Source: Bermanella sp.
Lineage (GTDB): Bacteria; Pseudomonadota; Gammaproteobacteria; Pseudomonadales; Oceanobacteraceae
Assembly: GCA_034111105.1 (NCBI GenBank)
Contig: JAWUXY010000047.1
Coordinates: 3,519 to 35,518, forward strand
Direction: 5' to 3'
Length of the DNA stretch: 32,000 nt
Part shown: positions 2,379 to 29,644 of the stretch, piece by piece
Layout of the letters: every line of letters begins with the position of its first letter
Numbering within the stretch: the stretch's first letter is position 1
Translations under genes and position numbers: made by a program
Notes under the pieces: generated by a model
Seen by the model: the letters and a program-made list of their open reading frames with translations, nothing else
Told to the model about the DNA's origin: nothing
Database searches by the model: none

Positions 2379-3758
2379 TTAAGCGAAATAGTCCACCAGT
2401 GAATCACTTTCCATTGATTGAACCGCTTGTTCATCCGTCAAGTCAGAGTCGGAAAGGTCGCCCGCTATTTCGCCATCACCTGCCAGCCCATCATCAGTGT
2501 TTTGACCTTGTTGCTCACGACCTTGTTCAGAGACATTCACATCGGCTAAATTAATACCTTGTTGCTCTAATAGTTCACGCAGCCTAGGAGACTGTGCTTC
2601 TAATGCATCACGAACGGTTTGATTATTACTGCCAAACGCGACACTGACTTGATCGTTTTGAACTTTTATTTTCACTTCAAGTGAGCCTAACTCTGGTGGA
2701 TCCAATTGAATACGAGCAGTTTGTACACTTTCACTGGCCATGATACTGATGCGCTTCGCCACTTGATCATTCCACTGAGGGTGCTGAGGCGGCACATCTA
2801 ATTTATTAAACGTGGTTGAAAATTTTTCTGACATCTGGGTTTTAGAGGTATCTGTTTGATCCAGCGCCATGGATTTTGCAGGGTTAGCGTCTTTTAACCC
2901 ATTTAAGACTGCATCCGCTGTACCGGCTTTAACATCTTGCATCAGGCTAGGTTCTTGCGTTTGTGTAACGGGCGCGGCTGAATTTTCTTTTAAAACACTT
3001 AATGTTTTAGGCTGTTCATGGATCGACGTGTCTTCGAGTTCTAGTCCATCTAAGCTCACGTCATCCAACACGCTTTCCATACCAAGTTCATCAAGGTTGA
3101 TCATTTTACTATTTTGAGCGGCCATACCTGCCAGAGGGTTCACTGCTTGCTGGATAGGCTCGAGTAATTTTTCAGGCTCACCTTGACTGCCTTGCCTCAT
3201 GGCTAAATCCGATGGCGCTATTTTTACCTGACCATTGGCATCGGTTAACACGCCTTTCATGTCAAGAGCGTCGGTTTCTTCACTATCTAATGGTGCGCTA
3301 CTTTGTGTTTGAACTTGAAAATGTGGTTGCGCTCGACGCAAACTTTCAAGGTACTGTAACCCTTGCGGAGCATCTCCTTCGCTAGACTGTAAAGTGTCTG
3401 GTTGAATATTTTGAGCGTACAGCACACTACTTTCATCGCTGTGTATGTACACCTGAGGTTGCAGCGCAGGGGGACCCATAAAATCAGGATTTAGATCTTC
3501 AAGATGGTTATCGTCAAGGGTATACGTGTGCGGTAAATAAGCGGCAAATTCTTGCCCTATTGGCATGCTGGCGAGCTCACTCGCCGCTTGAAGTTGATCA
3601 AAGAAATTTAATCCATTTGCACCATTACTAGTCGTATCGGCAGAAAGACTACTGCTCTGAACTGGGCCTAAAACCCCTGCTTTACCCGTAATAGGCTGAG
3701 ATAACGGGTTGCTATTAGTAGTTGGTGAAACGAGAGCAAATAAAGGCGATACCGGCAT
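2379..3758 (-). CDS. fliK: FliK flagellar hook-length control protein
   Basis: 459 aa, Q/S/P/T-rich and disordered. C-terminal Flg_hook-type domain (ARIQLDPPELGSLEVKIKVQNDQVSVAFGSNNQTVRDALEAQSPRLRELLEQQGINLADVNV). Position is upstream of fliL. Confidence 0.85.
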   Translation of the reverse strand: MPVSPLFALVSPTTNSNPLSQPITGKAGVLGPVQSSSLSADTTSNGANGLNFFDQLQAASELASMPIGQEFAAYLPHTYTLDDNHLEDLNPDFMGPPALQPQVYIHSDESSVLYAQNIQPDTLQSSEGDAPQGLQYLESLRRAQPHFQVQTQSSAPLDSEETDALDMKGVLTDANGQVKIAPSDLAMRQGSQGEPEKLLEPIQQAVNPLAGMAAQNSKMINLDELGMESVLDDVSLDGLELEDTSIHEQPKTLSVLKENSAAPVTQTQEPSLMQDVKAGTADAVLNGLKDANPAKSMALDQTDTSKTQMSEKFSTTFNKLDVPPQHPQWNDQVAKRISIMASESVQTARIQLDPPELGSLEVKIKVQNDQVSVAFGSNNQTVRDALEAQSPRLRELLEQQGINLADVNVSEQGREQQGQNTDDGLAGDGEIAGDLSDSDLTDEQAVQSMESDSLVDYFA

Positions 3759-3821: not shown

Positions 3822-4154
3822 TTACTGTAATTCTTGAAGTTGGGCTTTAACCAATAAAAATTCTTGTTCTATCTTTTCAAATACTTGTGATACATCATCT
3901 AACTTTTGAGCTCGACCTGAGTCTTCAACTGTTTTAAATAATGCAGATAATGACTCTGCGCATACATTGGCACTCGAACCTTTTAAACTATGTGCTAACT
4001 CAGCTACTTGGAGGCTATCGGTTGAACTAATAGCCTCTTTTAAAGCCATCATTTTTGTATCACTATCATTAAGATAGGTCATGACAAGATCACCAAAGCT
4101 ATCTTCCATGATGTCTTTTAATTCTTCTATTTGCGAAATATTCAAGTGGGACAT
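3822..4154 (-). CDS. Stand-alone Hpt histidine phosphotransfer protein (HptB-like)
   Basis: 110 aa four-helix-type protein with the Hpt signature AHSLKGSSANV. Starts 5 nt downstream of the REC-PP2C-kinase gene. Confidence 0.85.
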   Translation of the reverse strand: MSHLNISQIEELKDIMEDSFGDLVMTYLNDSDTKMMALKEAISSTDSLQVAELAHSLKGSSANVCAESLSALFKTVEDSGRAQKLDDVSQVFEKIEQEFLLVKAQLQELQ

Positions 4155-4159
4155 AGCAC

Positions 4160-5875
4160 TTACTCCTCAAGCTGAGTTTTCCATGACAAGCAAACCTGTA
4201 CTTTGTTGCCTTTACCAAAATAAATAAGACTATCACATAAACTATAAATCAGTGGAATGCCTCGACCACAATAGGCTGAATTATCTTCAGATTTAAGGTT
4301 GAAATTGTTGTTATCATATTTAAATCCCTCGCCACTGTCTTCAACCACAATGGTGAGCTTACCACCCTTATCGAGTGGTTCAAGATCAAAGTCAAACTTA
4401 ACAAATGTATCCTTTAAAGATTCCATAGCGATATTACGTAAACGATAATATTCCGCAAAGCCATCAGCTGTTTTTTTAAGATCCGAACTTAAACCTAATA
4501 CACCGTGTTCAAATGCATTAGAGAATAGTTCCGCCATTAACGTATAAAGTTGACCACTTAAGTTACGCAGTGCAGGTACATCATTAAGTATATTCAACAT
4601 GACGGGAAGAGGATTAAATGTTTTTAGGGTCTCGTCTCTTAGGGTGTAGACCATATTCCAATCGGTCGGGCCCGTCACTGCACCACTGGATAAATCAATA
4701 TCAACTTTGGCAATCTCTGACTCATCCACCATTGATAACTCTAATAAAGTGGTATCATCATCACGACCATTCTCGCCTGCGAATTGATTCACATTTTTCA
4801 AAATATTATCGAAAAATAATTCACTATCAGGTTCATCAAAAATAGCAAATAAGCGCTCATCACCAAATAGTTCGCCCTCCGTATTACGGGCTTCTATGAT
4901 GCCATCAGACCACATATAAAGTTTATCACCCGGAATAAATCTAAACGTGGCAGTATCGGCATCAAATGCTTGTGATGACAACACACCCAGCGGCAAATGG
5001 TTTGATTTAATGCGTTCAATTTCTCCGGTTTCTTTACGATATAACCCAAAGTCCGGTAACCCACCCATCCAAACTTCTATTTCTTGGCGTCTGAAACTTA
5101 AATTCACCATACAGGTACAGCAAAAGTAACCTACTGGTAGTATTTTTTTTAGTTTGATATTTATTTCACGTAAAATATCAACCATGAAGAAGCCTTTGGC
5201 TGTCATACCATAAAATATTTCAGCAAGGGGCATCGCACCAATCGCAGCGGGCAAGCCGTGTCCGGTAAAGTCACCTAATAGAATATGAATACTGCCAGAA
5301 GGTTTGCGTGCTGCGAGCAAGACGTCACCATTAAAAATAGAGAATGGTGACAACATGTGTTTAATATTGGGTAGATCTAAACAACCACTGTGGGCCACAT
5401 TATCATAAACGGCTCGAGCCACTTGTTGCTCATGGCGCATATGTTCATTATTTTCTCTAATGACATCTCGCTGATCTTGTAGAGTATTATGCATTTTGAG
5501 CATACGACTAAATGCATTAATTTTAGCCTGCAAGATAATTTTGTTGTACGGTTTTGAAATGAAATCATCGCCACCGCTTTCAAGGCACGTAGCAAGATCA
5601 GACGCTTCTTGTAGGGAGGTTAAGAAGATAATGGGGACCATATCTTCACCTGCTAATGCCTTAATAGACTTAGCAGCTTGCTGCCCATTTAAGTTGGGCA
5701 TAATGACATCAAGTAAAATGATATCGGGTTTGTGTTCTAAAAATTGATTAATGGCTTCGTTGCCATCAGCCGCTTCACACACGCTGTGCCCCATTTTCTT
5801 AACAATGGCACACAGTATCATTCGGTCAGATTGATTATCATCCGCCACCAATATATGCAGTGGTGTTTCATCCAT
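4160..5875 (-). CDS. Response-regulator receiver + PP2C/SpoIIE Ser phosphatase + RsbW/SpoIIAB-like HATPase Ser kinase (HsbR-like partner-switching regulator)
   Basis: REC motifs are VADDNQSD, IILLDVIMPNLNG and ISKPY. PP2C motifs are GDFTGHGLPAAIGAM, WSDGIIEARN and GRDDDTTLLEL. The C-terminal HATPase has an N-box ELFSNAFEHG, G1 VEDSGEGF and G2 GRGIPLI. Confidence 0.88.
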   Translation of the reverse strand: MDETPLHILVADDNQSDRMILCAIVKKMGHSVCEAADGNEAINQFLEHKPDIILLDVIMPNLNGQQAAKSIKALAGEDMVPIIFLTSLQEASDLATCLESGGDDFISKPYNKIILQAKINAFSRMLKMHNTLQDQRDVIRENNEHMRHEQQVARAVYDNVAHSGCLDLPNIKHMLSPFSIFNGDVLLAARKPSGSIHILLGDFTGHGLPAAIGAMPLAEIFYGMTAKGFFMVDILREINIKLKKILPVGYFCCTCMVNLSFRRQEIEVWMGGLPDFGLYRKETGEIERIKSNHLPLGVLSSQAFDADTATFRFIPGDKLYMWSDGIIEARNTEGELFGDERLFAIFDEPDSELFFDNILKNVNQFAGENGRDDDTTLLELSMVDESEIAKVDIDLSSGAVTGPTDWNMVYTLRDETLKTFNPLPVMLNILNDVPALRNLSGQLYTLMAELFSNAFEHGVLGLSSDLKKTADGFAEYYRLRNIAMESLKDTFVKFDFDLEPLDKGGKLTIVVEDSGEGFKYDNNNFNLKSEDNSAYCGRGIPLIYSLCDSLIYFGKGNKVQVCLSWKTQLEE

Positions 5876-5896
5876 AGCGGACCTCAGCTATACCGT

Positions 5897-6196
5897 TTAT
5901 TCGATCGTAAACAGTTGCTCAAAGTTAGAAATCGTTAAAATCTTTTTAACATCCGCATTACAGCGGCTAATACGAACATTGGCACTTTCTCCGCCAGCAT
6001 GGTCACGTAGTAGTAGTAACATGCCTAAAGCAGAACTATCTAAATAAGACGCTTTAGCCATATCAATGACGTATTTATTGACACCACTATCAGCATCCTC
6101 ATACGCATCTCGAAACTCTTGATGAGCACTAAAGTCGAATCGTCCTTCAACAACGACCGTAAGTTCATCACCTTTAATAGAAGTATTTATCGGCAT
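5897..6196 (-). CDS. STAS-domain anti-sigma-factor antagonist (HsbA/SpoIIAA/RsbV-like)
   Basis: 99 aa with the canonical phospho-serine context YLDSSALGMLLLL. Lies 21 nt upstream of the PP2C/kinase gene. Confidence 0.82.
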   Translation of the reverse strand: MPINTSIKGDELTVVVEGRFDFSAHQEFRDAYEDADSGVNKYVIDMAKASYLDSSALGMLLLLRDHAGGESANVRISRCNADVKKILTISNFEQLFTIE

Positions 6197-6272: not shown

Positions 6273-7331
6273 TTAGTGTTTAATTGCGTTTTTTAATTTT
6301 TTTACCGTATGGGCTGCAATTTGATTCAAGGGTAGAATGATGTTTTCAGCGCCTAATTCGACTGCTGCACCCGGCATCCCCCAGACCACTGAGCTTTCTT
6401 TGTCTTGTACAATATTATAACTGCCAGCTTGTTTCATGCGTAACATTGCAGCCGCACCGTCGGCCCCCATCCCCGTTAACATAATACCAATCGTACGTTT
6501 AACTAACTGCGGGTGGCGTGTAATAGAATCAAATAACACTTCAACAGAGGGTTTATGTAAATTGACTCGCTCACCGTCATATACTTTGCAATAGAAGTGC
6601 CCGCCTTTTTGTAGCACCTCAAACTGCCGGTCACCAGGGGCTATGTAAATGTGACCTGGCATGATTTTATCGCCATCTTGTGCTTCGCTCACGTCTTGAG
6701 GGATAAGATTATTAATACGATTGGCAAATGAGCTGCTAAATACGGGCGGGATATGCTGAGTGATAACAATGGGCGGCGTATCAGCAGGCAGCATACACAG
6801 TAACTCACGAATGGCTTCTGTTCCTCCTGTTGACGCACCAATCACAATTATGGCGTCACGATTCAATCCTTGTTTCGTAATGGGCTTAACAGTTTTGCTA
6901 GCTGATCGATTAGCCTGAATTTCTAAGCGACTCACATTAGCGACTGAGGCCGTTCTTACTTTATTAACAATCTCATCAGCGTATTCGGCTAATAACTCAG
7001 GTTTATCGGCGCTAGGCTTACCGATATAATCCACCGCACCAATTTCTAATGCTTCAAGTGTTGAAGGGGCGCCTTTTTGCGTTAATGTTGAGATCATCAC
7101 CACTGGCAATGGGCGTAAACGCATAAGATTACGTAAGAAGGTAATGCCGTCCATTTTCGGCATTTCAATATCAAGTGTGATAACGTCAGGATTAAGTGTC
7201 TTGATTTTTTCCCTAGCAATATAAGGGTCGGCAGCCGTGCCCACCACTTCTATATTCGCTTGATTCGATAATATCTCAGTGAGTACTTTTCGTATTAAGA
7301 TAGAATCATCTACGATCAAAACTTTAATCAT
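6273..7331 (-). CDS. cheB: CheB chemotaxis response regulator protein-glutamate methylesterase
   Basis: N-terminal REC (IKVLIVDDS, DVITLDIEMPKMDG) plus a methylesterase domain (GASTGGTEA, ITQHIPP, LTGMGADGA). Confidence 0.95.
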   Translation of the reverse strand: MIKVLIVDDSILIRKVLTEILSNQANIEVVGTAADPYIAREKIKTLNPDVITLDIEMPKMDGITFLRNLMRLRPLPVVMISTLTQKGAPSTLEALEIGAVDYIGKPSADKPELLAEYADEIVNKVRTASVANVSRLEIQANRSASKTVKPITKQGLNRDAIIVIGASTGGTEAIRELLCMLPADTPPIVITQHIPPVFSSSFANRINNLIPQDVSEAQDGDKIMPGHIYIAPGDRQFEVLQKGGHFYCKVYDGERVNLHKPSVEVLFDSITRHPQLVKRTIGIMLTGMGADGAAAMLRMKQAGSYNIVQDKESSVVWGMPGAAVELGAENIILPLNQIAAHTVKKLKNAIKH

Positions 7332-7343
7332 GACCCACCTAAC

Positions 7344-7985
7344 TTAATCAAATAATTCAATATTAGAGTCATCTTTATGCTCCCTAATTGAATCGAGGTA
7401 ACCTTTTTCACGCTCAATGATCGTTTCATTGCGCGTCGTTGTAATTCGCCTAACTTTGACACTACCAGTATCAGGAAAATATAATATTTTTCGAGAAAAA
7501 ACATCCCCTACATCAGCGGCTTTTACTTTAATACCTTCTTTACGCAAAAAATCATAAGCAAATAAAATATTTCGCTGACCCACATCAGTCATACTCGCCA
7601 GTACTTGACCACCACCAAATAGCTTCACCTCAAGGTTGCGCTTTGAACACCCTAATTTATAAAGCGTATTTAATAGGTATTCCATTGCCCAGTTACCATA
7701 ACGAGTTTCTGATGTATTAGCATCACTCCCCCATTGTGGCGTACTGTGCTCATTTTGTATCGGCAACATAAAATGATTCATACCACCAATTCCTAACGTC
7801 ACATCTCGCACGCAAGCACTGATACAAGAGCCTAAAACGGTACTGATCATTTCACCGTGAGTCGTGATATAAAATTCACCCGGTAAAATCTTTGCTGACC
7901 ACACATTGAGCTTGGGATCAAAGTATCGATTAACATGTTCAAAACCCTTTTCAGCCACTGGCTGACTTAACGGATGATGATCCAT
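7344..7985 (-). CDS. cheD: CheD chemoreceptor glutamine deamidase
   Basis: CheD family motifs (TVLGSCISACVRD, GGMNHFMLP, VKLFGGG). The start overlaps the cheR stop by 1 nt (TAATG). Confidence 0.9.
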   Translation of the reverse strand: MDHHPLSQPVAEKGFEHVNRYFDPKLNVWSAKILPGEFYITTHGEMISTVLGSCISACVRDVTLGIGGMNHFMLPIQNEHSTPQWGSDANTSETRYGNWAMEYLLNTLYKLGCSKRNLEVKLFGGGQVLASMTDVGQRNILFAYDFLRKEGIKVKAADVGDVFSRKILYFPDTGSVKVRRITTTRNETIIEREKGYLDSIREHKDDSNIELFD

Positions 7986-8809
7986 TACCTTACCTTTTGA
8001 TAAATAGTGCGACCTTTAGGCTCAAACCGTGACGTCATACCGTGTAAGGTTTCACTGTGGCCAATAAACAAATACCCACCATCATTGAGTTGATCTGCTA
8101 GCCGTTCAAATAATTCTTTTTGTGTTTCTTTGTTAAAATAAATCACTACATTACGACAAAAAATAACATCAAATTTTGCCGTCATAGGCCATGGCCCTAA
8201 AAGATTAAGGCGGTTAAACTGAATCAGCGCTTTAATATCTGACTTAACCATTCCCATGGCAGTTCCCGAGTTTTGTTGAAAACAAGACAAGTAATCACGC
8301 GGCAATTGTTCGATTTCAGTTAGGGGGTACACCCCTTCTCGACCTTTTTTTAATACATCACTATCAAGATCAGTGGCTAAAATTTTAATATCATGCTGCT
8401 TGACCATCATATTTTTATATAATGTGATGGCAATGCTGTAAGGCTCGGGCCCAGTAGAACAAGCCGAAGACCAAATTCGAATAGGCTTAGACTTATCTTG
8501 TTTTTTCCACTGAGGAATAAGTTCTTTTGCTAAGTATTCGAAATGATGTGATTCACGAAAAAATGAGGTGAGATTAGTCGTAATTGAATTTACAAATTCA
8601 TTTACTTCAGACGTTTGGTTAGCATCTAAATATTTGCAGTACTGTGCAAAGTTTTTTAGACCCAGTTTTCTGATACGTCGAGATACACGACTGTAGACCA
8701 GTTCTTTTTTTTGATCACCCAGTACGATACCGCTAATATCATACGCCATGGCTGTGAGGCGTTTAAAGTCCTCATCAGCCATTGGGAATTCCTTTCCAGT
8801 GAAATCCAT
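7985..8809 (-). CDS. cheR: CheR chemotaxis protein methyltransferase
   Basis: Contains FFRESHHFEYL, the SAM motif IRIWSSACSTGPEPYSIA, DVIFCRNVVIYF and GGYLFIGHSE. Confidence 0.95.
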   Translation of the reverse strand: MDFTGKEFPMADEDFKRLTAMAYDISGIVLGDQKKELVYSRVSRRIRKLGLKNFAQYCKYLDANQTSEVNEFVNSITTNLTSFFRESHHFEYLAKELIPQWKKQDKSKPIRIWSSACSTGPEPYSIAITLYKNMMVKQHDIKILATDLDSDVLKKGREGVYPLTEIEQLPRDYLSCFQQNSGTAMGMVKSDIKALIQFNRLNLLGPWPMTAKFDVIFCRNVVIYFNKETQKELFERLADQLNDGGYLFIGHSETLHGMTSRFEPKGRTIYQKVR

Positions 8810-8823
8810 ATTAATTTACGTCA

Positions 8824-11800
8824 CTAAAATTCTTGCCAGTCATCATCATCATCCTTGACCACTGGGCGACTTGCCGTTGACGGTTTATGCGTCTGTGCCG
8901 TTGAGGCTCTTGGTTTATTGATTGAGGATTGACCTCCCCCATGATGACCGGATGATTGATGCATCGCCATTGGGCTTTGTACATCCGACCCGGATGCCAC
9001 TTTAAAGAAGCCAACTAAATCAAGCATATTTTTCGCTTGTTCGGTCATGGTTTCACTGGCGGCAGATGCTTCTTCAACTAAAGCCGCATTTTGTTGCGTC
9101 ATTTCATCCATCTGACTAATGGCTTTATTAACCTGTTCGATACCACTGGCTTGCTCTTCTGAAGCTGAACTGATTTCTTTAATCATTGTGTTCACTTTTT
9201 CAACAGCTTCGACGATTTCTGCCAATGTTTGTCCTGACTTGTTAACAAGGTCGGTACCGTTATCCACTTTTTCGACACTATCGCGAATAAGGTCTTTAAT
9301 TTCTTTTGCTGCACCTGCGCTGCGCTGCGCTAAGTTACGCACTTCACCGGCGACCACTGCAAAGCCTTTACCTTGCTCACCTGCTCGAGCCGCTTCAACA
9401 GCAGCATTTAGCGCTAATAAATTGGTTTGGAATGCAATCTCATCAATCACGCCAATAATATCTGCAATTTTTTTACTGGACGTATTAATTTCTTCCATCG
9501 CTCCCACTGCCTTGCTAACGACTTGACCACCCTTCTGGGCTTTGTCTTGCGCATTGGCCGCTAAGTTATTAGCGTGAGAGGCGTTCTCGCTGGTTTGACG
9601 CACCGAGCTTGTCATTTCTTCCATGCTAGATGCTGTCTCTTCTAAACTGGAAGCTTGCTCTTCTGTGCGTTGGCTTAAATCTGTATTGCCCTGTGCAATT
9701 TCAGTTGAGCCAGTACTTACGGTATTAGCTGATTCACGAATACGTCCAATGACATCGGTTAATCGTTCGCCTGTGGCGTTGGCATCTTGTTTTAGTTTTC
9801 CGAAAATACCTTGGTAATCAGCCTCTATACGCTCATCTAACTTACCATGAGCCATAGCGTCTAATACGCGCGCGGTGTCGTTAATGACGTTTTCAGAGAT
9901 TGTCATTAAACTATTAAGGCCCATGCATAAGTTTTTAAAGAACCCACTCTTATCATCCACGGTGGCGCGCAGACTTAACTCACCTTTACTTGCAGATTCA
10001 ATAATATTATCAACTTCACGTTCAACCGATACTTCTTCTGTACGATCACTCCATTCAACCACTGTACCTAATCGCTCCCCTTCTGGGTTAACAATTGGGC
10101 TCGCTATTAATGAGAACGTACGTCCACCTACAACAATTTGCGTTTTATAAGTATCTTTTAATGCCGCTAGCATTTGTCGTTGATGGGCAGGGTTTTTATG
10201 GAAAATATCAATATTACTGCCCAATACCTGACTGGCTGAAAATTGAGGTAAATCTTTACGCACATCAGATTCTGCTATGCGTAGCATGCCAGCTACGGCT
10301 TCATTGGTATAAATAACATTTTGATCATTATCAGCAATCATTGTATTCGCTGAACAAGCATCAAGTGCTAAACGAACGCGAGTATTTTCATCCGCTGTGC
10401 GTTTCTGCTCAGCCTCAAAAGTTAACTGTTCTGTTAAATCAAGCCACTCAACAACTGTACCAAGGCGTTTTTCATCTTGCCAAACAGGTGTCGCAACAAG
10501 ATTAAATGTTCTTCCACCTACTACAATTTTGGTTTTATAGACATCTCGAAGCTCACTAAGCATACCTCTCTGATGAGAAGGATTTTTATGGAATCCATCA
10601 ACATTAAATCCCATTAGATTTTTAACATCAAAATTCGGTAAATCTTTCTTAATATCCGATTCTGCATCACTCAGCATTTCAAGGACAGAATCATTTAAAT
10701 ATACGATATTTAATTCTTCATCAGCCATCATTACATTTGCTTGGCATACATCAAGCGCACTTCGTGTACGAGCATTTTCATCTCCTATCCGTTTCAACTC
10801 TGCCTCTGAGGCTAACGCTTCCGTCAAGTCGCGCCACTCAACAACTGTACCAAGGCGTTTTTCATCTTGCCAAACAGGCGTCGCAACAAGATTAAATGTT
10901 CTTCCACCTACTACAATATTGGTTTTATAAACATCCCGAAGGTCACGGAGCATTCCTCTTTGGTGAGAAGGATTTTTATGAAAACCATCGACATTAAAAC
11001 CCATTAGGTTTTTAACATCAAAGTTCGGTAAATCTTTCTTAATATCCGATTGTGCGTCATTCAGCATTTCGCGAACAGAATCATTTAAATATACAATATT
11101 TAATTCTTCATCTGCCATCATTACATTTGCTTGACATACATCAAGCGCACTTCGTGTACGAGAATTTTCAGCCGAAATTTTTTCTTCTCGCTCAGTTCGT
11201 GCTATTTCTTCTGTTTTATCTGTCCACTCAACAACTGTACCTATGCGCTTACCCTCTGCGCTCAATACTGGATTAACAATCAAAGAGAATGTCCGACCAC
11301 CAAGATTTAATTGGGTTTCATGTGTGCCTGATAACTTATCTAACATAGAGCGCTGATAGCTTGGGTCTTTATGGAAGATATCAATATTTTGCCCTAAAAC
11401 TTTATCAACTGAGAAGCTAGGGATGCTTTTTTTGATATCGTTTTCTGCGGTTACAAACATGTCTTTTACACCTTTATTGGTATAAACAAGATTGTATTCT
11501 TCGTCCGCTACCATCAAGCAAGACTCTGCACATGAATCTAATGCACGCTTAATTCGAGTATTGGAGATGCTTTCATTTTTCTGTCTTGTAACGTTAGTTG
11601 CAAATTTAATAACCTTATAAGGCTTACCATCTTCACCTAAAACAGGATTATAAGATGCTTGAATCCAAACTTCTTTACCACCTTTACCAATGCGTTTATA
11701 TTCTTCACTTTCAAATTCACCACTGTTTAATTTCTCCCAAAACATACGGTACTCATTACTTTCTTTAAAGCTAGGCTCTACAAATATACTATGATGCTTC

Positions 11801-12288
11801 CCTTTAACTTCATCGAGTGTATACCCCATAACACTTAAGAAATTATGATTAGCCGTAATAATTGTACCGTCCATGTTAAATTCGATAATCGCTTGTACTT
11901 TATCAATTGCAAACACTTTGGCTTCATTTTCTTTTTGATTACTGGTATCTGTGCTCGACACAATGCCTTTTATGCTATTGCGTAGGTTGACCAGGGTGTA
12001 TATTAATTTAGCTAATTCGTCTTTCCCTTTTGTACTTGGGTCGTAGCTATAATCACCATTAGCAGTGGCGTTTGCACTTCGAGTAGCCAAGACTAACACC
12101 GTCAACAACTTATGCGCTTGCATCCAATGAGCAATAAGCCCCGCTAAACACAACAAACTAAGTACAATTAAAGCATTGCCCGCTTGTTCTTGGGGGATTG
12201 TAATAAAGGCATATACCAAACCAACAAGAGGTAATATCCAAGGCATTATAAATTTATACTGTATGCTCATCCGGCTTAAACTATCCAT
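8824..12288 (-). CDS. Methyl-accepting chemotaxis protein, Aer2/McpB-like: TM hairpin, PAS, four Aer2-type PAS, HAMP, MA domain and a C-terminal DWQEF pentapeptide
   Basis: Highly conserved MCP hairpin tip [42 protein letters not shown]. Four modules carry FHK(N/D)PxxQR and GTVVEW. I place the start at the ATG at 12288 (AGGTGG SD 8 nt upstream); the ORF track starts at a GTG at 12300, abutting the cheW stop. Confidence 0.95.
10443..11170 (-). repeat. In-frame tandem duplication (period 390 nt = 130 aa) encoding two near-identical PAS modules
   Basis: My manual alignment of 10443-10780 against 10833-11170 gives roughly 26 mismatches in about 340 nt and no indels (about 92% identity). The flanking PAS modules (10045-10440 and 11170-11559) are clearly more diverged. 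Confidence 0.9.
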
Positions 12289-12300
12289 TTTTGTTACCAC

Positions 12301-12795
12301 CTAGTCATCAATCGTTAAAAGATTTTCAAGTTCTAATAGAATCACCATGTTTTTTTTCACAGTAACCAACCCTTTTATGAAGTTTGAATTCTTATTGTCA
12401 CCTAGCCCTTTATTTTTTGCATCGCCAATGGGTACGTCATACACATCACTGATAGCATCAACAATAATCCCCATTGTTCTCGTCCCATTCGCTGTGAATA
12501 TCTTAAGTACAATCACAACGGTTTCGTCTCCGTATTCCACTTTTGATAAATCAAAACGCAAACGTAAATCCATAATAGGGACAATGGTGCCACGCAAATT
12601 AATTACGCCTTTCAAATACTTGGGGCTATTAGGTATTGGGGTCGCTGACTCCCAACCTCTAATCTCTTGTACCGCTAAAATATCAACCCCGTATTCTTCA
12701 TCTGCCATAATGAACGTTAAATATTGCTCGGTCAGAACCCCATCTTCGAATCCAGCACGCTGATCTTTTTGTTCCACTTCACTCGTTGCAGTCAT
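12301..12795 (-). CDS. cheW: CheW coupling protein
   Basis: 164 aa CheW domain (EYGVDILAVQEIRGW, VINLRGTIVPIMDLR, GIIVDAISDV). Confidence 0.95.
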   Translation of the reverse strand: MTATSEVEQKDQRAGFEDGVLTEQYLTFIMADEEYGVDILAVQEIRGWESATPIPNSPKYLKGVINLRGTIVPIMDLRLRFDLSKVEYGDETVVIVLKIFTANGTRTMGIIVDAISDVYDVPIGDAKNKGLGDNKNSNFIKGLVTVKKNMVILLELENLLTIDD

Positions 12796-12810: not shown

Positions 12811-14925
12811 CTATGCGGCTTTATGGCTACCATCAATAATTTTTGATGATGCCCCACTCATTTTTGACAAGCTGCTAATATCCACGATCAGTGCAACGGT
12901 ACCATCGCCTAATATAGTTGCACCTGAAATACCATCTACTCGTTTGTAGTTCTCTTCTAAACTCTTGATAACCACTTGCTGCTGACCTAATAGTTCATCA
13001 ACAACTACGCCCATTTTTTCACCATCGGTTTCAACCACAACAATGATACTTTCTTCAATGGGTTTCTTTTCTTTATCAATATTAAATACGTCATCTAGTT
13101 CAATAATAGGGACATATTCATCACGCAACTGAAGTACATCACTGTGGCCACCAACATGGTTAATGGCACGATCATCTAGCTGAATGGACTCCACAATACT
13201 GACCAAAGGAAATATGTATATTTCATCTCCGACTTTAACAAGCTGACCGTCTAAAATGGCAAGTGTTAGAGGTAATCGAATCACAAAGCGAGAACCGCGA
13301 CCTCTTTCTGAGCTTACTTCGATCGAACCGTTTAATGCTGAGATATTACGACGTACGACATCCATACCCACACCACGACCTGATAAATCACTGACGATGT
13401 CCGCGGTAGAGAAACCAGGTTGAAAAATAAGGTCAAAAATTTGTTCTTGGCTTAGGTTTGCACCTTCTGCCACTAAACCTTTTTCAATCGCCTTTGATAA
13501 TATACGGTCTGAATTTATACCCGCGCCATCATCTTTTATTTCAATGACGATATTACCGCTTTGATGATAAGCATCTAATTTAACCGTACCTGTTTCTGGC
13601 TTGCCTGCTGCAAGACGATCGGCTGGCACTTCAATGCCGTGGTCAATCGAATTGCGAATAAGGTGAACCATTGGGTCGCCTATTTTTTCCATTACCGTTT
13701 TATCAAGTTCGGTATTTTCACCTGACATTAACAGCTCAATTTTTTTATTAAGAGAAATACTCACATCCCGTACTAAGCGAGGGAATCGACTGAATACAAA
13801 GCTAATAGGCATCATGCGAATTTTCATCACACTCTCTTGTAGCTCACGAGTGTTGTGCTCTAATTGCGCTAGCCCTTCTTGTAAACGCTGTACTCTTGAT
13901 ATATCAAAATTTTGCCCAAGTTGCCCAAGCATTGATTGAGTAATCACCAGCTCACCAACCATATTAATTAAGCTATCAACTTTGTCGATACTCACTCGAA
14001 TAGATGAACTTTCTTGCGCCTTTTGTGGTGATTTAGCTTGGGGCTGAGCCTCTACGGCTTCCGCTTTGACGACGGTTTTTTCAGCGGGGGGCGTGGCTGG
14101 CGCAACAACACTCTCTGTTGGTTTTTCTTCACCTGCATTTGATGCATGTTCACCCGATGCTGAACCTGTCGAATCCACACCCATTGACAACGGTGTAATG
14201 ATAATTTCAGCATCATCAATGACCCATTCAAATACTTCATCTATTTCAGATTTTTCAATGGATTTTTCTATACGAATATCCCAAGCCAAATAACATTTCT
14301 CAGGATCAAGCCCAGTTAACTCAGGTAGACGTTGCGTATCGGCAATGACTTGCATTTGATAATCACACAGTTCGGCTAATTGGCGAAACATGCGCGCAGG
14401 TTCATTACCTGTTTGTAAAATAGTTAATTCCGGAATAAACCGAATATGCCAGCCACCGGCTTTATCATCATCTTGTTTGTCTACAGCAGGTGGTGACGGA
14501 GGCTCATCTGGTATGTTTGCATCTGTAGAAGCTGACCCGACATTTAAGATACTTTCAAATTGTGCTTTTAAACTATTGGTTTCAGTTAAGTTTGGATCAT
14601 TACCCGCCTGCAAGTCTTGTAATAACCCTTTGATGCAATCAACACTTTTCAATAGTAAATTCTGAATATCTTGACTCATGGCACGCTTGCCACTGCGTAT
14701 TTGATCTAACAATGTTTCTAGCACATGGGTAAACCCAGCCACTTGGTTAAAACCAAATGTCCCCGCTCCCCCTTTCATTGAATGTGCTGCGCGAAATATC
14801 GTATTGATTATCTCAGCATCAGGTTCCACCAAGTCTAGCTCGAGCAAACCTTGCTCCATAGCATCTAGACCTTCGTAGCTTTCTTCGAAGAATACTTGGT
14901 GAAATTGGCTAAGATCAATACTCAT
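12811..14925 (-). CDS. cheA: CheA chemotaxis histidine kinase
   Basis: P1 Hpt (AAHSMKGGAGTFG), P3/P4 (HLIRNSIDHGIE, DDGAGIN, GRGVGMDVV) and P5 CheW-like C-terminus. Confidence 0.97.
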   Translation of the reverse strand: MSIDLSQFHQVFFEESYEGLDAMEQGLLELDLVEPDAEIINTIFRAAHSMKGGAGTFGFNQVAGFTHVLETLLDQIRSGKRAMSQDIQNLLLKSVDCIKGLLQDLQAGNDPNLTETNSLKAQFESILNVGSASTDANIPDEPPSPPAVDKQDDDKAGGWHIRFIPELTILQTGNEPARMFRQLAELCDYQMQVIADTQRLPELTGLDPEKCYLAWDIRIEKSIEKSEIDEVFEWVIDDAEIIITPLSMGVDSTGSASGEHASNAGEEKPTESVVAPATPPAEKTVVKAEAVEAQPQAKSPQKAQESSSIRVSIDKVDSLINMVGELVITQSMLGQLGQNFDISRVQRLQEGLAQLEHNTRELQESVMKIRMMPISFVFSRFPRLVRDVSISLNKKIELLMSGENTELDKTVMEKIGDPMVHLIRNSIDHGIEVPADRLAAGKPETGTVKLDAYHQSGNIVIEIKDDGAGINSDRILSKAIEKGLVAEGANLSQEQIFDLIFQPGFSTADIVSDLSGRGVGMDVVRRNISALNGSIEVSSERGRGSRFVIRLPLTLAILDGQLVKVGDEIYIFPLVSIVESIQLDDRAINHVGGHSDVLQLRDEYVPIIELDDVFNIDKEKKPIEESIIVVVETDGEKMGVVVDELLGQQQVVIKSLEENYKRVDGISGATILGDGTVALIVDISSLSKMSGASSKIIDGSHKAA

Positions 14926-14929
14926 GAAT

Positions 14930-15292
14930 TTACCCTAGAACTTTCTTAATGGTGGTAAGAAGTTGATCAGGGTTGAATGGTTTTACGATCCAACCAGTTG
15001 CCCCTGCGCTTTTACCTTCCATTTTTTTATCACCGGCAGATTCGGTGGTGAGCATTAAGATCGGTGTGAATTTATAGCTCGGTAGCTCCCGTAATTTACG
15101 GCACAATTCAATGCCATTCATATTCGGCATATTCACGTCACTCAGTACAAGGTCAACTCCTTGTCCCTGTGCAAACTTTAATGCTTCGGCACCATCACTG
15201 GCTTCTACTACGTCGTGACCCGCCCCTTTTAATGTAAAGCTAACCATTTGGCGCATGGAGGCTGAATCATCTACTGCTAATATTTTTGCCAT
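14930..15292 (-). CDS. cheY: CheY single-domain response regulator
   Basis: 120 aa with all receiver residues present (VDDS, LVLSDVNMPNMNG, LMLTTE, VKPF). Lies 4 nt upstream of cheA. Confidence 0.95.
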   Translation of the reverse strand: MAKILAVDDSASMRQMVSFTLKGAGHDVVEASDGAEALKFAQGQGVDLVLSDVNMPNMNGIELCRKLRELPSYKFTPILMLTTESAGDKKMEGKSAGATGWIVKPFNPDQLLTTIKKVLG

Positions 15293-15308: not shown

Positions 15309-15590
15309 TTAATGTCCATTCAATCCAATGTGTTCGTCAATGCCCAGCAACTTGGCTGTCGCGACTGTTTGCTCAGAGGGATTTGGCCAAGTGAGCTTAC
15401 GATCATATTTGGCTAATGCCTGATGAAAACTAAGGATAAGTTGTAATGCAGATGTGTCTATTTGCTCGACGCTTGCGGATTGAATTTCGATATCGTTACC
15501 GGATTGAATCAAGCTTTCCATTTGCCCATGCAGCTCCTCTGCCTTAACTATGGTACAGCGAGTACCTAAGTCGATTTTATCCATATCCAT
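15309..15590 (-). CDS. Small STAS-domain protein at the head of the che operon (CheS-like by position)
   Basis: 93 aa with a STAS-like core (VEQIDTSALQLILSF). Same size and position (directly upstream of cheY-cheA) as S. meliloti CheS. Assignment by motif and synteny only. Confidence 0.65.
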   Translation of the reverse strand: MDMDKIDLGTRCTIVKAEELHGQMESLIQSGNDIEIQSASVEQIDTSALQLILSFHQALAKYDRKLTWPNPSEQTVATAKLLGIDEHIGLNGH

Positions 15591-15680: not shown

Positions 15681-16130
15681 TTATGAGCTATGAAGGCGAT
15701 GTAGTTGTGCGCCTATTTCATCTAAAAATTTTTGCATCTGTTGGTTTTCTGACGCAATTGCTTGATCATTAAGTCGGGATTCTAACTTTTCGTAGCTCTT
15801 CAACTTTTGATTAAGTGTTTGATAAATAGCTTGAGCTTTTTTAAGTTGCTCTTTAACTTGAAAAATATGGTTATTTTGTTGAGTGATGGCATCGTCTATT
15901 TGACGCATAAATGATTCAAACTGTTGTATCTGTAAACCAGAAACCTTTACGCTGGCTTGGGATTGAAAGTTCTCACGGTAATCTTGCTGGTAACCAAGTA
16001 ATGTATTACTTTTTTCTTGTTCACTATTCAGTTTTTGCTGAAGCGCACCTATATAAGAAAGTGCTTCATTAACCGCATTTTGGGCAATCTGTACTAATGG
16101 TTTGAGTCGTTTTGCGCGTTCGCGGCTCAT
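15681..16130 (-). CDS. fliJ: FliJ flagellar export chaperone/stalk protein
   Basis: 149 aa Q/K/E-rich coiled-coil protein. 4-nt overlap with the fliI stop and conserved fliI-fliJ synteny. Confidence 0.82.
   Translation of the reverse strand: MSRERAKRLKPLVQIAQNAVNEALSYIGALQQKLNSEQEKSNTLLGYQQDYRENFQSQASVKVSGLQIQQFESFMRQIDDAITQQNNHIFQVKEQLKKAQAIYQTLNQKLKSYEKLESRLNDQAIASENQQMQKFLDEIGAQLHRLHSS

Positions 16131-17477: not shown

Positions 17478-17506
<29 letters not shown>
16127..17506 (-). CDS. fliI: FliI flagellum-specific ATPase
   Basis: Walker A GSGVGKSMLLGM, Walker B DVLLLMDSLTRY, F1/T3SS-ATPase fold motifs. An alternative start is the ATG at 17488 (MSLKSIRW...). Either start overlaps the fliH 3' end. 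Confidence 0.97.
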
Positions 17507-18719
<1,213 letters not shown>

Positions 18720-27574: not shown

Positions 27575-29644
27575 ATGGCTCTTAGCAACAGTGCAAATCC
27601 AAAACAGGACAAGCTCAGTCGCAAAAAATTAAGCTTAATTAATGAGCTTAAAAAGCAGACGTTTTTGTTATTTGATGAAACCCAAAACCATCATGATCAC
27701 AAGGTGCGTCAACAAGCATTAAAAGGTGCCAAATCTTTTATCATGCAAGCACTGGATATCGCACCGCTGGATGGTGATAGTCTTAATCTTTTAACAAGGA
27801 TTGAGCTGGAATCCGGTCAATTCGAAAAAGCGCATCACGCTATCGAACAAGCCTTAACCGAACACCCTCAAAATGCGGGCTACTGGTACAGTGCCGGTCA
27901 CGTTGCACTCGCTTTACATGATTTTAATGAAGCCGAACAAGCATTTAAGCAAGCCATTGCACTGGCGCCGAATCAAACGCGCGCAGAAGTAAGCTTGGCT
28001 TACACCTTGGTTGAGCAGGGACGAAAAGTTGAGGCTTTTCAGTTATACAGGCAACTGGTCAAAACAAACGCCCAAGATGTACAAATTCGTAGCCGCCTAC
28101 TACACAGTGCACAGGGATTAGTAGCCGATTATTATGATCCAGAACTTGAACAAGATTTAATTAGTTATTTAAATTGGGACGATCTCAATTTGAATCAGCT
28201 CTCTCATTTATGCTGCAGCGTTTTAATTTACAAGTTCAAATTGAACAATCAAGGCAGCGCCTCTTCATTTAATGATATGGCTAACTCTATTTTATTATTG
28301 AAAACGTTACAAAATACTATTATTAAAAATGAGTTACTTGAGAAGCTAATCATTGCGCTGCGCCAAGAATTATTGGCCCATGCCAGTAAAAAAGGCCGCT
28401 TAATTAATCAGTATGTGCCGTTATGTGAAGCCTTATGCCAATATGCATTGAACAATGAATTCTTAATGCCTTACACAGAAGCTGAGCGCTCAATGGTGTT
28501 AACGCTTAAAACCATGATTGAACAATCATTAACACAACCGGGCTGCACACCCACTGATATATCTGGTGCACTCATGCTGTTTGCCATGTATGAATCTTGG
28601 TACACCATAGACAACCATAAAATTTTATTCGATTTTGATAATAGTAGCTGGCCTGCTATTAGTTTTGATATAAAAGTGGCGCATGATCGCTTACTGCATG
28701 AACAACATTTTGAATTTAACACCCTGACATCGATATCAGAAGGTAACCCTCACGAAGTTAAAACACAGTATGAGCGTTTCCCTTATCCTAGATGGCAGTT
28801 TTTAGATAATAAAAATGTCACGAACTATGGTCGAGCACTTCAGCATGAGTTTCCATGGATTAACGTGCCGACGTCTATTTTATCGCAACCATTAAATATT
28901 TTAGTGGCAGGCTGTGGTACAGGTCGTCATGCACTGAATGTTGCAAAATACTTTTACAACACCCATGTAACAGCCTTAGATATTAGCGAAACCAGTTTAA
29001 GCTATGCGTATAAAAAATCCGCTGAATTAGACATTGAAAATATTGAATTTCATTTAGCCGATTTAACCAAGCTTTCAAAACTAGACCAACCATTTGATAT
29101 TGTAGAGTGCTCAGGTGTTTTGCATCACATTCAAGATTATAAGACGGCATTAAATGGTTTACTGTGCAACCTAAAGCCAAATGGCTTTTTAAAATTATCG
29201 CTATACAGTAAACGCGCTCGTAAACCGGTTTATCAAATTCGTAAAGCCTATAAACACGGCGGCATCGAAAAAAATGAGCAAGACATTCGAATATTACGCC
29301 ATGCTATATTTGCCGATGACAAAATTGAAGATAAACATCTAATTACCGAATCTGATGATTTTTACAGCATGAGCGGCGTGGTGGATTTATTACTGCATGA
29401 ATATGAAGTAGGGTTTACACCAAAATCGATTAAAGCATTATGCGACACACATCAGTTGATGTTTTTGGGGTTCTCTAACCTGGATACGCAACTAAAAGAG
29501 TCATTTAAACAATTTATTGGCTCTGATTGTGCGCTAGACAATCTAGACCAATGGGAATTATTTGAGAAAAAACACCCAAACACATTCAGCGCTATGTTCC
29601 AATTTTACTGCCAGTACAAGCCACAATTAAAATCGATGAACTAG
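27575..29644 (+). CDS. TPR-repeat protein fused to a class I SAM-dependent methyltransferase; substrate unknown
   Basis: N-terminal TPR-like repeats (about aa 60-180, e.g. AGYWYSAGHVALALHDFNEAEQAFKQAIALAP). Methyltransferase motifs are I ILVAGCGTGRHA, post-I VTALDIS, II FDIVECSGVLHH and III LKPNGFLKLSLY (about nt 28880-29230). Confidence 0.8.
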   Translation: MALSNSANPKQDKLSRKKLSLINELKKQTFLLFDETQNHHDHKVRQQALKGAKSFIMQALDIAPLDGDSLNLLTRIELESGQFEKAHHAIEQALTEHPQNAGYWYSAGHVALALHDFNEAEQAFKQAIALAPNQTRAEVSLAYTLVEQGRKVEAFQLYRQLVKTNAQDVQIRSRLLHSAQGLVADYYDPELEQDLISYLNWDDLNLNQLSHLCCSVLIYKFKLNNQGSASSFNDMANSILLLKTLQNTIIKNELLEKLIIALRQELLAHASKKGRLINQYVPLCEALCQYALNNEFLMPYTEAERSMVLTLKTMIEQSLTQPGCTPTDISGALMLFAMYESWYTIDNHKILFDFDNSSWPAISFDIKVAHDRLLHEQHFEFNTLTSISEGNPHEVKTQYERFPYPRWQFLDNKNVTNYGRALQHEFPWINVPTSILSQPLNILVAGCGTGRHALNVAKYFYNTHVTALDISETSLSYAYKKSAELDIENIEFHLADLTKLSKLDQPFDIVECSGVLHHIQDYKTALNGLLCNLKPNGFLKLSLYSKRARKPVYQIRKAYKHGGIEKNEQDIRILRHAIFADDKIEDKHLITESDDFYSMSGVVDLLLHEYEVGFTPKSIKALCDTHQLMFLGFSNLDTQLKESFKQFIGSDCALDNLDQWELFEKKHPNTFSAMFQFYCQYKPQLKSMN

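Follow-up and report, generated by a model that had tools for sequence, protein, structure and literature searches.

An Aer2-like chemoreceptor of Bermanella sp. with four tandem Aer2-type PAS modules, and the varying number of such modules among its relatives

Why Aer2 chemoreceptors carry one, two or three PAS-heme domains has been stated to be an open question (Stuffle et al. 2022, PMC10107281), and it is raised afresh by a gene that appears to encode four of them. This gene lies in a 32,000-nucleotide (nt) stretch of DNA from Bermanella sp. (the window; positions 3,519 to 35,518 of contig JAWUXY010000047.1, assembly GCA_034111105.1), where it occupies 8824..12300 on the minus strand as a single open reading frame (ORF) of 1158 amino acids (aa) counted from a GTG codon; residue positions given below follow this ORF. 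The deduced product is an Aer2-like chemoreceptor, with matches to the Pfam families MCPsignal (8e-59), HAMP_2 and several PAS families and, in the PDB, to Tsr and to the structures 3vol (6e-62) and 4hi4 (1.5e-36) of PaAer2, the Aer2 of Pseudomonas aeruginosa. The nearest named relatives of the window are metagenome-assembled genomes (MAGs) of Bermanella, Oceaniserpentilla and 'Oceanicoccus'. Aer2 serves as the model for in-line PAS-to-HAMP signaling and for heme-based gas sensing in chemoreceptors.

The initial annotation of this DNA placed four tandem Aer2-type PAS modules at 10045-11559. A regular-expression and profile scan bears this out, locating the modules, with a period of 130 aa, at nt 11559 down to 10030 and thus within 15 nt of that range. 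The motif FHK[ND]P occurs four times in the translation, giving His310, His441, His571 and His701, and GTVVEW four times, giving Trp359, Trp489, Trp619 and Trp750; both residues had been claimed for every module, and motif scan and profile alignment find them there. The PaAer2 numbers quoted with them (H234 in FHKNP, W283 in QWTDRTE) are right when 4hi4 and 3vol are counted from residue 173. The distance from His to Trp is 49, 48, 48 and 49 residues in modules 1 to 4, and 49 between H234 and W283 of PaAer2. Full-length BLASTP alignments (115–118 residues) against the PaAer2 PAS domain, the sequence of which was taken from the PDB 3vol/4hi4 alignments, give 47, 53, 55 and 56% identity for modules 1 to 4, with E-values (database size 1e8) of 7e-40, 2e-39, 2e-41 and 2e-45, values far outside the reach of chance; phmmer likewise gives hits to 3vol and 4hi4 in the PDB. 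In Xing et al. 2023, the Aer2-type PAS-heme domain (PaAer2 PAS 173–289) is PAS cluster 119.

Module 1, of a 'first-type' (aa 248–366; 11203..11559, as all modules on the minus strand), contains Leu340 and D361xT363 besides His310 and Trp359. Modules 2 (aa 380–496; 10813..11163) and 3 (aa 510–626; 10423..10773) are of a 'middle-type' and contain, in addition to their His and Trp, Tyr457, Leu470 and D491xT493, and Tyr587, Leu600 and D621xT623, respectively. Module 4, of a 'last-type' (aa 640–757; 10030..10383), contains Tyr718, Leu731 and D752xT754 and is the PAS domain of the 'Aer2 core' (see below). In the profile alignment all four modules have the same residue as PaAer2 at the positions of H234, W283, L264 (the H-beta Leu) and Met187 and possess the D-x-T motif. 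A Tyr is found 32 residues before the Trp in modules 2 to 4, and a His at this position in module 1 and in PaAer2; as the spacing from the G-beta Tyr to the I-beta Trp is the same in VvAer2 of Vibrio vulnificus (Y119/W151, Y246/W278), modules 2 to 4 hold both residues known to bond O2. The position of PaAer2 His239 is a Tyr in module 1, unlike in modules 2 to 4. By sequence, modules 1 to 4 are thus Aer2-type heme-pocket PAS domains, with four pockets that should be competent to bind heme.

A full-length AlphaFold2 monomer, built on alignment A1 (27 sequences), has a mean predicted local distance difference test score (pLDDT) of 66, with 75–85 in the PAS cores, and a predicted template-modeling score (pTM) of 0.28; because of the low pTM and the monomeric state, only per-domain features of this model were used. 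According to DSSP, modules 1 to 4 share one pattern, in which an N-cap helix and two strands are followed by a long C/D helix, a helix of four residues at the His, an F helix and three long strands, and they are joined in the model by helices of about 25 residues, which run from I-beta via the DxT motif and the linker to the next N-cap. Foldseek superimposes the model on 4hi4_A with a target-normalized TM-score of 0.86 (root-mean-square deviation 2.0 Å, 115 columns) and on 3vol with 0.85, each being a single local match per target, that is, a superposition of one module.

How did four modules come about? The DNA contains direct repeats spaced 390, 390 and 393 nt, and Tandem Repeats Finder reports 10443-11170 (period 390, 92% matches), the stretch of modules 2 and 3. 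These two are 92% identical, with eight substitutions in the core (about 8% of its positions) and clearly different linkers; module 3 is, as far as the sequences tell, a tandem duplicate of module 2. Over the 130-aa unit the ratio of nonsynonymous to synonymous substitution rates (dN/dS) between them is 0.17, from which it follows that both are under purifying selection. Of 377 modules taken from 120 homolog clusters, 372 have His as well as Trp (the His, considered by itself, is kept in 373), and the Met187, Leu264 and DxT positions are conserved in these modules to the same degree. From this and the dN/dS value it follows that the extra copies are preserved as heme-pocket domains instead of decaying. 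A tandem repeat of this kind also invites the suspicion that the count of four is an artefact of reads mis-joined within it, as the sequence is a Joint Genome Institute (JGI) metagenome contig, and short-read assemblers may collapse or expand repeats such as modules 2 and 3, with their 92% DNA identity over about 730 nt. The core differences and the distinct linkers are, however, enough for unique read placement, the reading frame is intact, and the same succession of transmembrane (TM) helices, HAMP, PAS and four modules is encoded in independent assemblies (the homologs P0004 and P0016, 84% and 72% identical, and a Bermanella MAG, locus L058, 71%). Because these share the architecture, an assembly artefact seems hardly credible.

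Comparison with the relatives assigns each module type its place. The first module of the related proteins matches module 1 (70–86% identity), the last one matches module 4 (70–92%), and those in between match modules 2 and 3; orthologs of module 1 stand first in 2-, 3- and 4-module relatives alike, and in the nearest relatives (P0004, P0005, P0015, P0037, P0033, P0025, P0044) the last module shares 83–92% identity with module 4. Two-module relatives consist of a module-1 and a module-4 type and lack the middle type, three-module relatives have one middle-type module in addition, and five-, seven- and ten-module proteins have further modules of the middle type. Relatives that are 79–88% identical differ only by clean in-frame insertions or deletions of 130 or 260 aa. 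To judge from these alignments, only the number of middle-type modules varies (the relatives have between 0 and at least 8 of them); the first and last types are fixed. The four-module state would then stem from a dedicated middle-type module that was duplicated in tandem. Modules 2 and 3 have no one-to-one orthologs in P0004, the identity of middle modules within a protein (92% here, 91% in P0004) exceeding that between the proteins (82–84%). This difference is greater still in distant lineages, with 81–85% within and 52–57% between proteins, which points to independent amplifications or to gene conversion.

Among characterized Aer2 receptors, that of P. aeruginosa has one PAS-heme domain, those of V. 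cholerae and Shewanella oneidensis have two, and those of V. vulnificus and Leptospira interrogans (LiAer2) have three (PMC10107281 for the latter two). The initial annotation knew of one (PaAer2) and two (VcAer2), which is correct for these proteins, but with tri-PAS-heme VvAer2 and LiAer2 already characterized the step taken here is from three to four, not from two to four. Its suggestion that a receptor with four would be new stands for the literature and falls for the databases. No receptor with at least four heme-PAS domains is described in the literature searched, which includes a July 2026 aerotaxis review (one to three only). In contrast, the 120 best homolog clusters comprise 27 proteins with four modules and 24 with five to ten (15 with five, two with six, six with seven and one with ten), next to 17 with none, three with one, 23 with two and 27 with three. 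In 80 species-representative genomes four to six modules occur 12 times (seven with four, four with five, one with six), as against one genome with one, 34 with two and 33 with three. A module was detected (E ≤ 1e-3) in 5006 proteins among 1.84 billion cluster representatives, with up to seven matched stretches per protein among the best 150. Cultured organisms are represented as well: the genome survey found five modules in Shewanella benthica and in Exilibacterium tricleocarpae and four in Pseudoalteromonas denitrificans, and the homolog clusters include S. violacea DSS12 with six. Multi-module homologs are annotated only generically, for example as 'methyl-accepting chemotaxis protein' (MCP). 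An architecture with at least four modules, though it has no description in the papers searched, is thus no rarity in sequence databases, and the four modules of the Bermanella receptor are one more than in any studied receptor and not a new kind of system. The largest array of the survey belongs to P0007, a homolog of 1820 aa from NCBI with ten consecutive Aer2-type modules, nine of them at the 130-aa period; its eight internal modules are 68–96% identical to one another.

The locus thus extends the Aer2 module series to four, and the survey makes the question of module number tractable by comparison. Near-identical natural orthologs at one locus differ by zero, one or two copies of one module type, and distant relatives reach ten; such natural variants offer a way to learn whether extra heme modules alter gain, threshold, cooperativity or array geometry. 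The variable-number array of middle modules across orthologous loci is more interesting than the count of four itself. It may be speculated, tentatively and with the odds rather against it, that Aer2 of marine gammaproteobacteria contains a variable-number heme-PAS array, the middle type of which has been amplified or lost repeatedly and independently in units of 130 aa (giving two to ten modules), and that copy number, open to selection, works as a dial for the gain, bias or threshold of the O2 response, for the height of the membrane-tethered F7 array, or for both. If true, the four-module receptor would be one allelic form within a natural series with 2, 3, 4, 5 and 7 modules at an orthologous locus.

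Residues 640–848 align contiguously and at equal length with residues 22–230 of 3vol, a PAS-HAMP construct of PaAer2 (E 6e-62). The di-HAMP unit (aa 758–860; 9721..10029, minus strand) is recognized by this alignment and by Pfam HAMP_2 (aa 785–843, 5.6e-10), and its helices comprise residues 754–771, 787–817 and 837 onward in the model. As the 'Aer2 core' is defined as a PAS-heme domain joined directly to a C-terminal di-HAMP (Stuffle et al. 2022, PMC10107281), module 4 with the adjoining di-HAMP qualifies by sequence as an Aer2 core. There follows the kinase-control (MCP signaling) module (aa 861–1101; 8998..9720, minus strand), of which residues 878–1101 align at equal length with residues 1–224 of Tsr in 1qu7 (E 1.6e-73) and, here, without gaps with full-length Tsr constructs. 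Tsr is a member of the 36-heptad (36H) class, and the equal length implies this class for the kinase-control module, too. Pairs of Glu are present at the Tsr methylation positions (E881, E888, E895, E1077). The protein ends in the pentapeptide DWQEF (8827..8841, minus strand), which conforms to the published CheR tether motif x-[HFYW]-x2-[HFYW]; homologs keep a C-terminal end xDDWQEF or xEEWEEF, and a CheR-tether pentapeptide is present in 96 of 130 Aer2-like receptors (Ortega et al. 2020, PMC7184735).

By sequence the protein is an Aer2-family receptor of a Che2-type cluster, probably of class F7, and it is most likely a heme-based O2 sensor, the last module of which signals and the upstream modules of which modulate. 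Its N-terminal two-helix hairpin would anchor it in the inner membrane and leave hardly any residues on the periplasmic side. According to the sequence, a HAMP-like segment, a PAS domain, the four Aer2-type PAS domains, the di-HAMP and a 36H kinase-control hairpin, presumably docking CheA and CheW, then follow in this order in the cytoplasm. By homology, each module would hold a single b-type heme by means of its E-eta His (H310, H441, H571, H701), and bound O2 would be stabilized by the I-beta Trp (W359, W489, W619, W750) and, in modules 2 to 4, by the G-beta Tyr as well. As summarized in PMC10107281, the last PAS domain signals and the penultimate one modulates in VcAer2, VvAer2 and LiAer2. 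By analogy, module 4, being joined to the di-HAMP, would transmit the O2 signal: O2 would displace the H-beta Leu, rotate the Trp and move the DxT motif, upon which inhibition of the kinase-control module by the di-HAMP would be relieved. The upstream heme modules would tune amplitude or bias, as VcPAS1 and VvPAS2 do, and may also aid dimer geometry or clustering. For adaptation, CheR would be tethered at DWQEF, and CheD and CheB would act on the four EE sites; output would proceed from CheA to CheY and CheB and possibly also to an adjacent partner switch of a response regulator-PP2C protein and STAS. In cryo-tomograms of F7 arrays about 5.6 nm are added per PAS layer (L2 at 24.5 nm, L3 at 30.1 nm; PMC7184735). 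With this increment and the N-terminal membrane tether, the baseplate would lie about 50 nm below the membrane.

Several points weigh against so complete a picture. Heme binding, ligand identity and response direction are all predictions. The heme of LiAer2 is, in the account given in PMC10107281, hexacoordinate, and its response has the inverted sign, so the family is not uniform; O2 binding by VvPAS1 is unstable, and this domain can largely be dispensed with (PMC10107281), and the conserved His and Trp are therefore no guarantee of a sensing role in each module. The in-line arrangement is not established by the structural model, which is a monomer of modest confidence, the F7 assignment rests on gene order and a 36H receptor and not on class-specific profiles, and copy numbers of repeats can come out wrong in short-read assemblies of metagenomes such as the one used here.

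Could all four hemes contribute to sensing on an equal footing? A cooperative, multi-threshold or multi-ligand sensor had been proposed in the initial annotation. In this scenario, the modules would differ in O2, NO or CO affinity, in ligand preference or in redox properties, and their signals would be summed along the rod, resulting in several thresholds or a steeper response. The full set of heme-pocket residues in all four modules and the purifying selection acting on them are in line with it, as are the two pocket-region positions at which module 1 differs from modules 2 to 4 (Tyr at the PaAer2 His239 position, His for the G-beta Tyr); repeated and independent change of copy number across lineages suggests selectability, and the authors of the VvAer2 study leave signal integration possible if PAS1 senses another ligand (PMC10107281). 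However, modules 2 and 3, being near-identical, are unlikely to differ in ligand or affinity, and O2 affinities are similar among the domains studied. The proposal thus finds no support here and is to be regarded as quite unlikely.

The upstream modules might, alternatively, be mainly structural, that is, heme-loaded rigid spacers determining how long the receptor is and thereby the distance between the membrane and the CheA/CheW baseplate, or determinants of dimerization or clustering, with little part in sensing. It fits this idea that copy number shifts in exact units of 130 aa, which include the linker helix of about 25 residues, that the receptor is held by the membrane at one end and by the baseplate at the other, and that each PAS layer contributes about 5.6 nm to F7 arrays; moreover, VvPAS1 is largely dispensable for O2 signaling and HAMP1 of PaAer2 is a clustering determinant. 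The distal-pocket Trp, Leu and Tyr would be superfluous in a pure spacer, yet they are conserved in about 99% of the 377 modules, and the penultimate PAS domain measurably modulates signaling of VcAer2 and VvAer2 (PMC10107281). A mainly structural role is therefore unlikely; a spacer or clustering function is plausible in part, but the conservation of the distal pocket argues against one that is purely structural. The O2 receptor with a signaling last module and modulating upstream modules remains the preferred reading.

For the N-terminal part, too, the initial annotation proved sound. The two-helix membrane anchor (aa 17–35 and 42–60; 12121..12252, minus strand) has the only 19-residue Kyte-Doolittle windows above 1.6 in the protein, and its helices, separated by about six residues (PQEQAGN), leave no real periplasmic loop; the model has helices at 13–34 and 41–80. 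The segment after TM2 (aa ~61–110; 11971..12120, minus strand) is possibly HAMP-like, although the assignment is not secure: Pfam HAMP matches aa 73–103 with E 2.3e-4 and 21.8 bits, the cutoff being 25, and the model has a helix-loop-helix of low pLDDT there. The PAS domain that follows (aa ~130–241; 11578..11913, minus strand) matches Pfam PAS_4 (4.5e-24), PAS_9 (8.8e-22) and PAS_3 (4.4e-15), with aa 136–241 as the confirmed extent, and is, as had been claimed, of a non-heme type. That it might be a degenerate fifth heme module was rejected, as it scores 0.5 bits against the heme-module profile, and its BLASTP match to module 1 is weak and partial (E 3e-4, 72 residues). Its best relatives in the PDB are the PAS domains of MmoS and E. 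coli Aer, which bind flavin adenine dinucleotide (FAD). A role as FAD sensor of the Aer/NifL/MmoS type was also rejected: of the FAD-contact residues R57, H58, D60, N85 and W70 of Aer, only W70 is kept, RHPD of Aer being replaced by VEPS and N85 by Arg in the phmmer alignment to 8dik and 31cj. Four homologs with the same anchor (P0011, P0019, P0026, P0027) have a heme-type module at aa ~123–241, the slot of the non-heme PAS domain here; two N-terminal architectures thus coexist in this clade.

The start codon deserves a comment. Homologous proteins begin with MDSLSR, which matches an ATG at 12288 (residue M5 of the ORF); the GTG at 12300 directly abuts the stop codon of cheW and is part of a Shine-Dalgarno-like motif, AGGTGG, 9 nt upstream of this ATG. 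In the JGI annotation the gene begins even further downstream, at M19. Because of the conserved N-terminus of the homologs, the ATG at 12288 is probably the true start, which gives a product of 1154 aa.

The receptor gene is surrounded by genes for a chemosensory pathway, all identified via Pfam and encoded on the minus strand: a 93-aa STAS protein (15309-15590), cheY (14930-15292), cheA (12811-14925), cheW (12301-12795), aer2, cheR (7985-8809), cheD (7344-7985), cheB (6273-7331), a second STAS gene (5897-6196), a response regulator-PP2C-HATPase_c_2 gene (4160-5875) and Hpt (3822-4154). The first STAS gene, between fliJ and cheY, is found in the same place in relatives (33–87% identity). The order cheY-cheA-cheW-aer2-cheR-cheD-cheB is conserved in loci L003, L058, L001, L079, L002 and L021, and the full arrangement including fliJ in four relatives (L003, L058, which is the Bermanella MAG, and two Oleispira MAGs); neighboring genes in L003 are 79–95% identical. 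This order is the same as in the Che2 (F7) cluster of P. aeruginosa and, together with the 36H Aer2-like receptor, points to a chemosensory cluster of the F7/Che2 type. The STAS and response regulator-phosphatase pair parallels CrsA/CrsR of the S. oneidensis che1 locus and RsbV/RsbU of V. vulnificus che2; by this analogy, the STAS, PP2C and Hpt genes (3822-6196) may form a partner switch with output to a sigma factor.

The whole che2-type cluster sits between fliJ (15681-16130) and fliK (2379-3758) on the minus strand of a flagellar gene cluster, a placement that is the same in L003, L058, L001 and L079. To our knowledge, the che2 cluster of P. aeruginosa is not inside a flagellar gene cluster. 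The flagellar genes here also include fleQ, a histidine kinase, a sigma-54 response regulator and fliEFGHIJ upstream, and fliKLMN downstream. The ORF for FliH (17478-18719, minus strand, 413 aa) has a FliH domain only at aa 129–251 and shares about 29 nt with the TTG-started fliI ORF; either its start has been placed too far upstream, or FliH has an N-terminal extension of unusual length. Adjoining fliS are a gene for a 689-aa protein with TPR and S-adenosylmethionine-dependent methyltransferase parts (27575-29644, plus strand) and an ORF of 736 aa (29727-31937, minus strand), the sole match of which is a weak one to the HZS_alpha middle domain; both ORFs may be flagellin-modification genes.

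How, then, does the receptor compare with known systems? It shares with PaAer2/McpB (3vol, 4hi4) a 47–56% identical heme-PAS domain in which H234, W283, L264, M187 and DxT are kept, the di-HAMP, the 36H signaling domain and the pentapeptide, and its gene order corresponds to cheY2-cheA2-cheW2-aer2-cheR2-cheD-cheB2; PaAer2, however, is a soluble protein that combines three HAMP domains at its N-terminus with one PAS domain. MEALZ_2872 of Methylomicrobium alcaliphilum (PMC7184735) is likewise an Aer2-like F7 receptor and is predicted to have two short membrane segments and a HAMP upstream of PAS but to lack a periplasmic domain. Only one heme-type PAS adjoins its di-HAMP, however, and its membrane segments, of 10 and 14 residues, are doubtful. 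LiAer2, so far as Orillard & Watts 2022 is reported in PMC10107281, is membrane-embedded and has three PAS-heme domains upstream of the Aer2 core; it differs by a periplasmic ligand-binding domain between its TM helices, where the present receptor has a loop of about six residues, and neither its hexacoordinate hemes nor its inverted response sign can be predicted for the latter. VvAer2 (Stuffle et al. 2022, PMC10107281) is alike in having several helix-joined PAS-heme domains, all provided with E-eta His, I-beta Trp and DxT and in part also with the G-beta Tyr, in the passage from the last PAS via the di-HAMP to a 36H kinase-control module, in a C-terminal xWxxF and in a cheAWYRDB cluster with response regulator-phosphatase and STAS (RsbU/RsbV). 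But while VvAer2 is soluble and consists N-terminally of nothing but three heme-PAS domains, the Bermanella receptor has four, two of them, in the middle, near-identical duplicates, preceded by the hairpin in the membrane, the HAMP-like segment and the additional PAS domain of the non-heme type.

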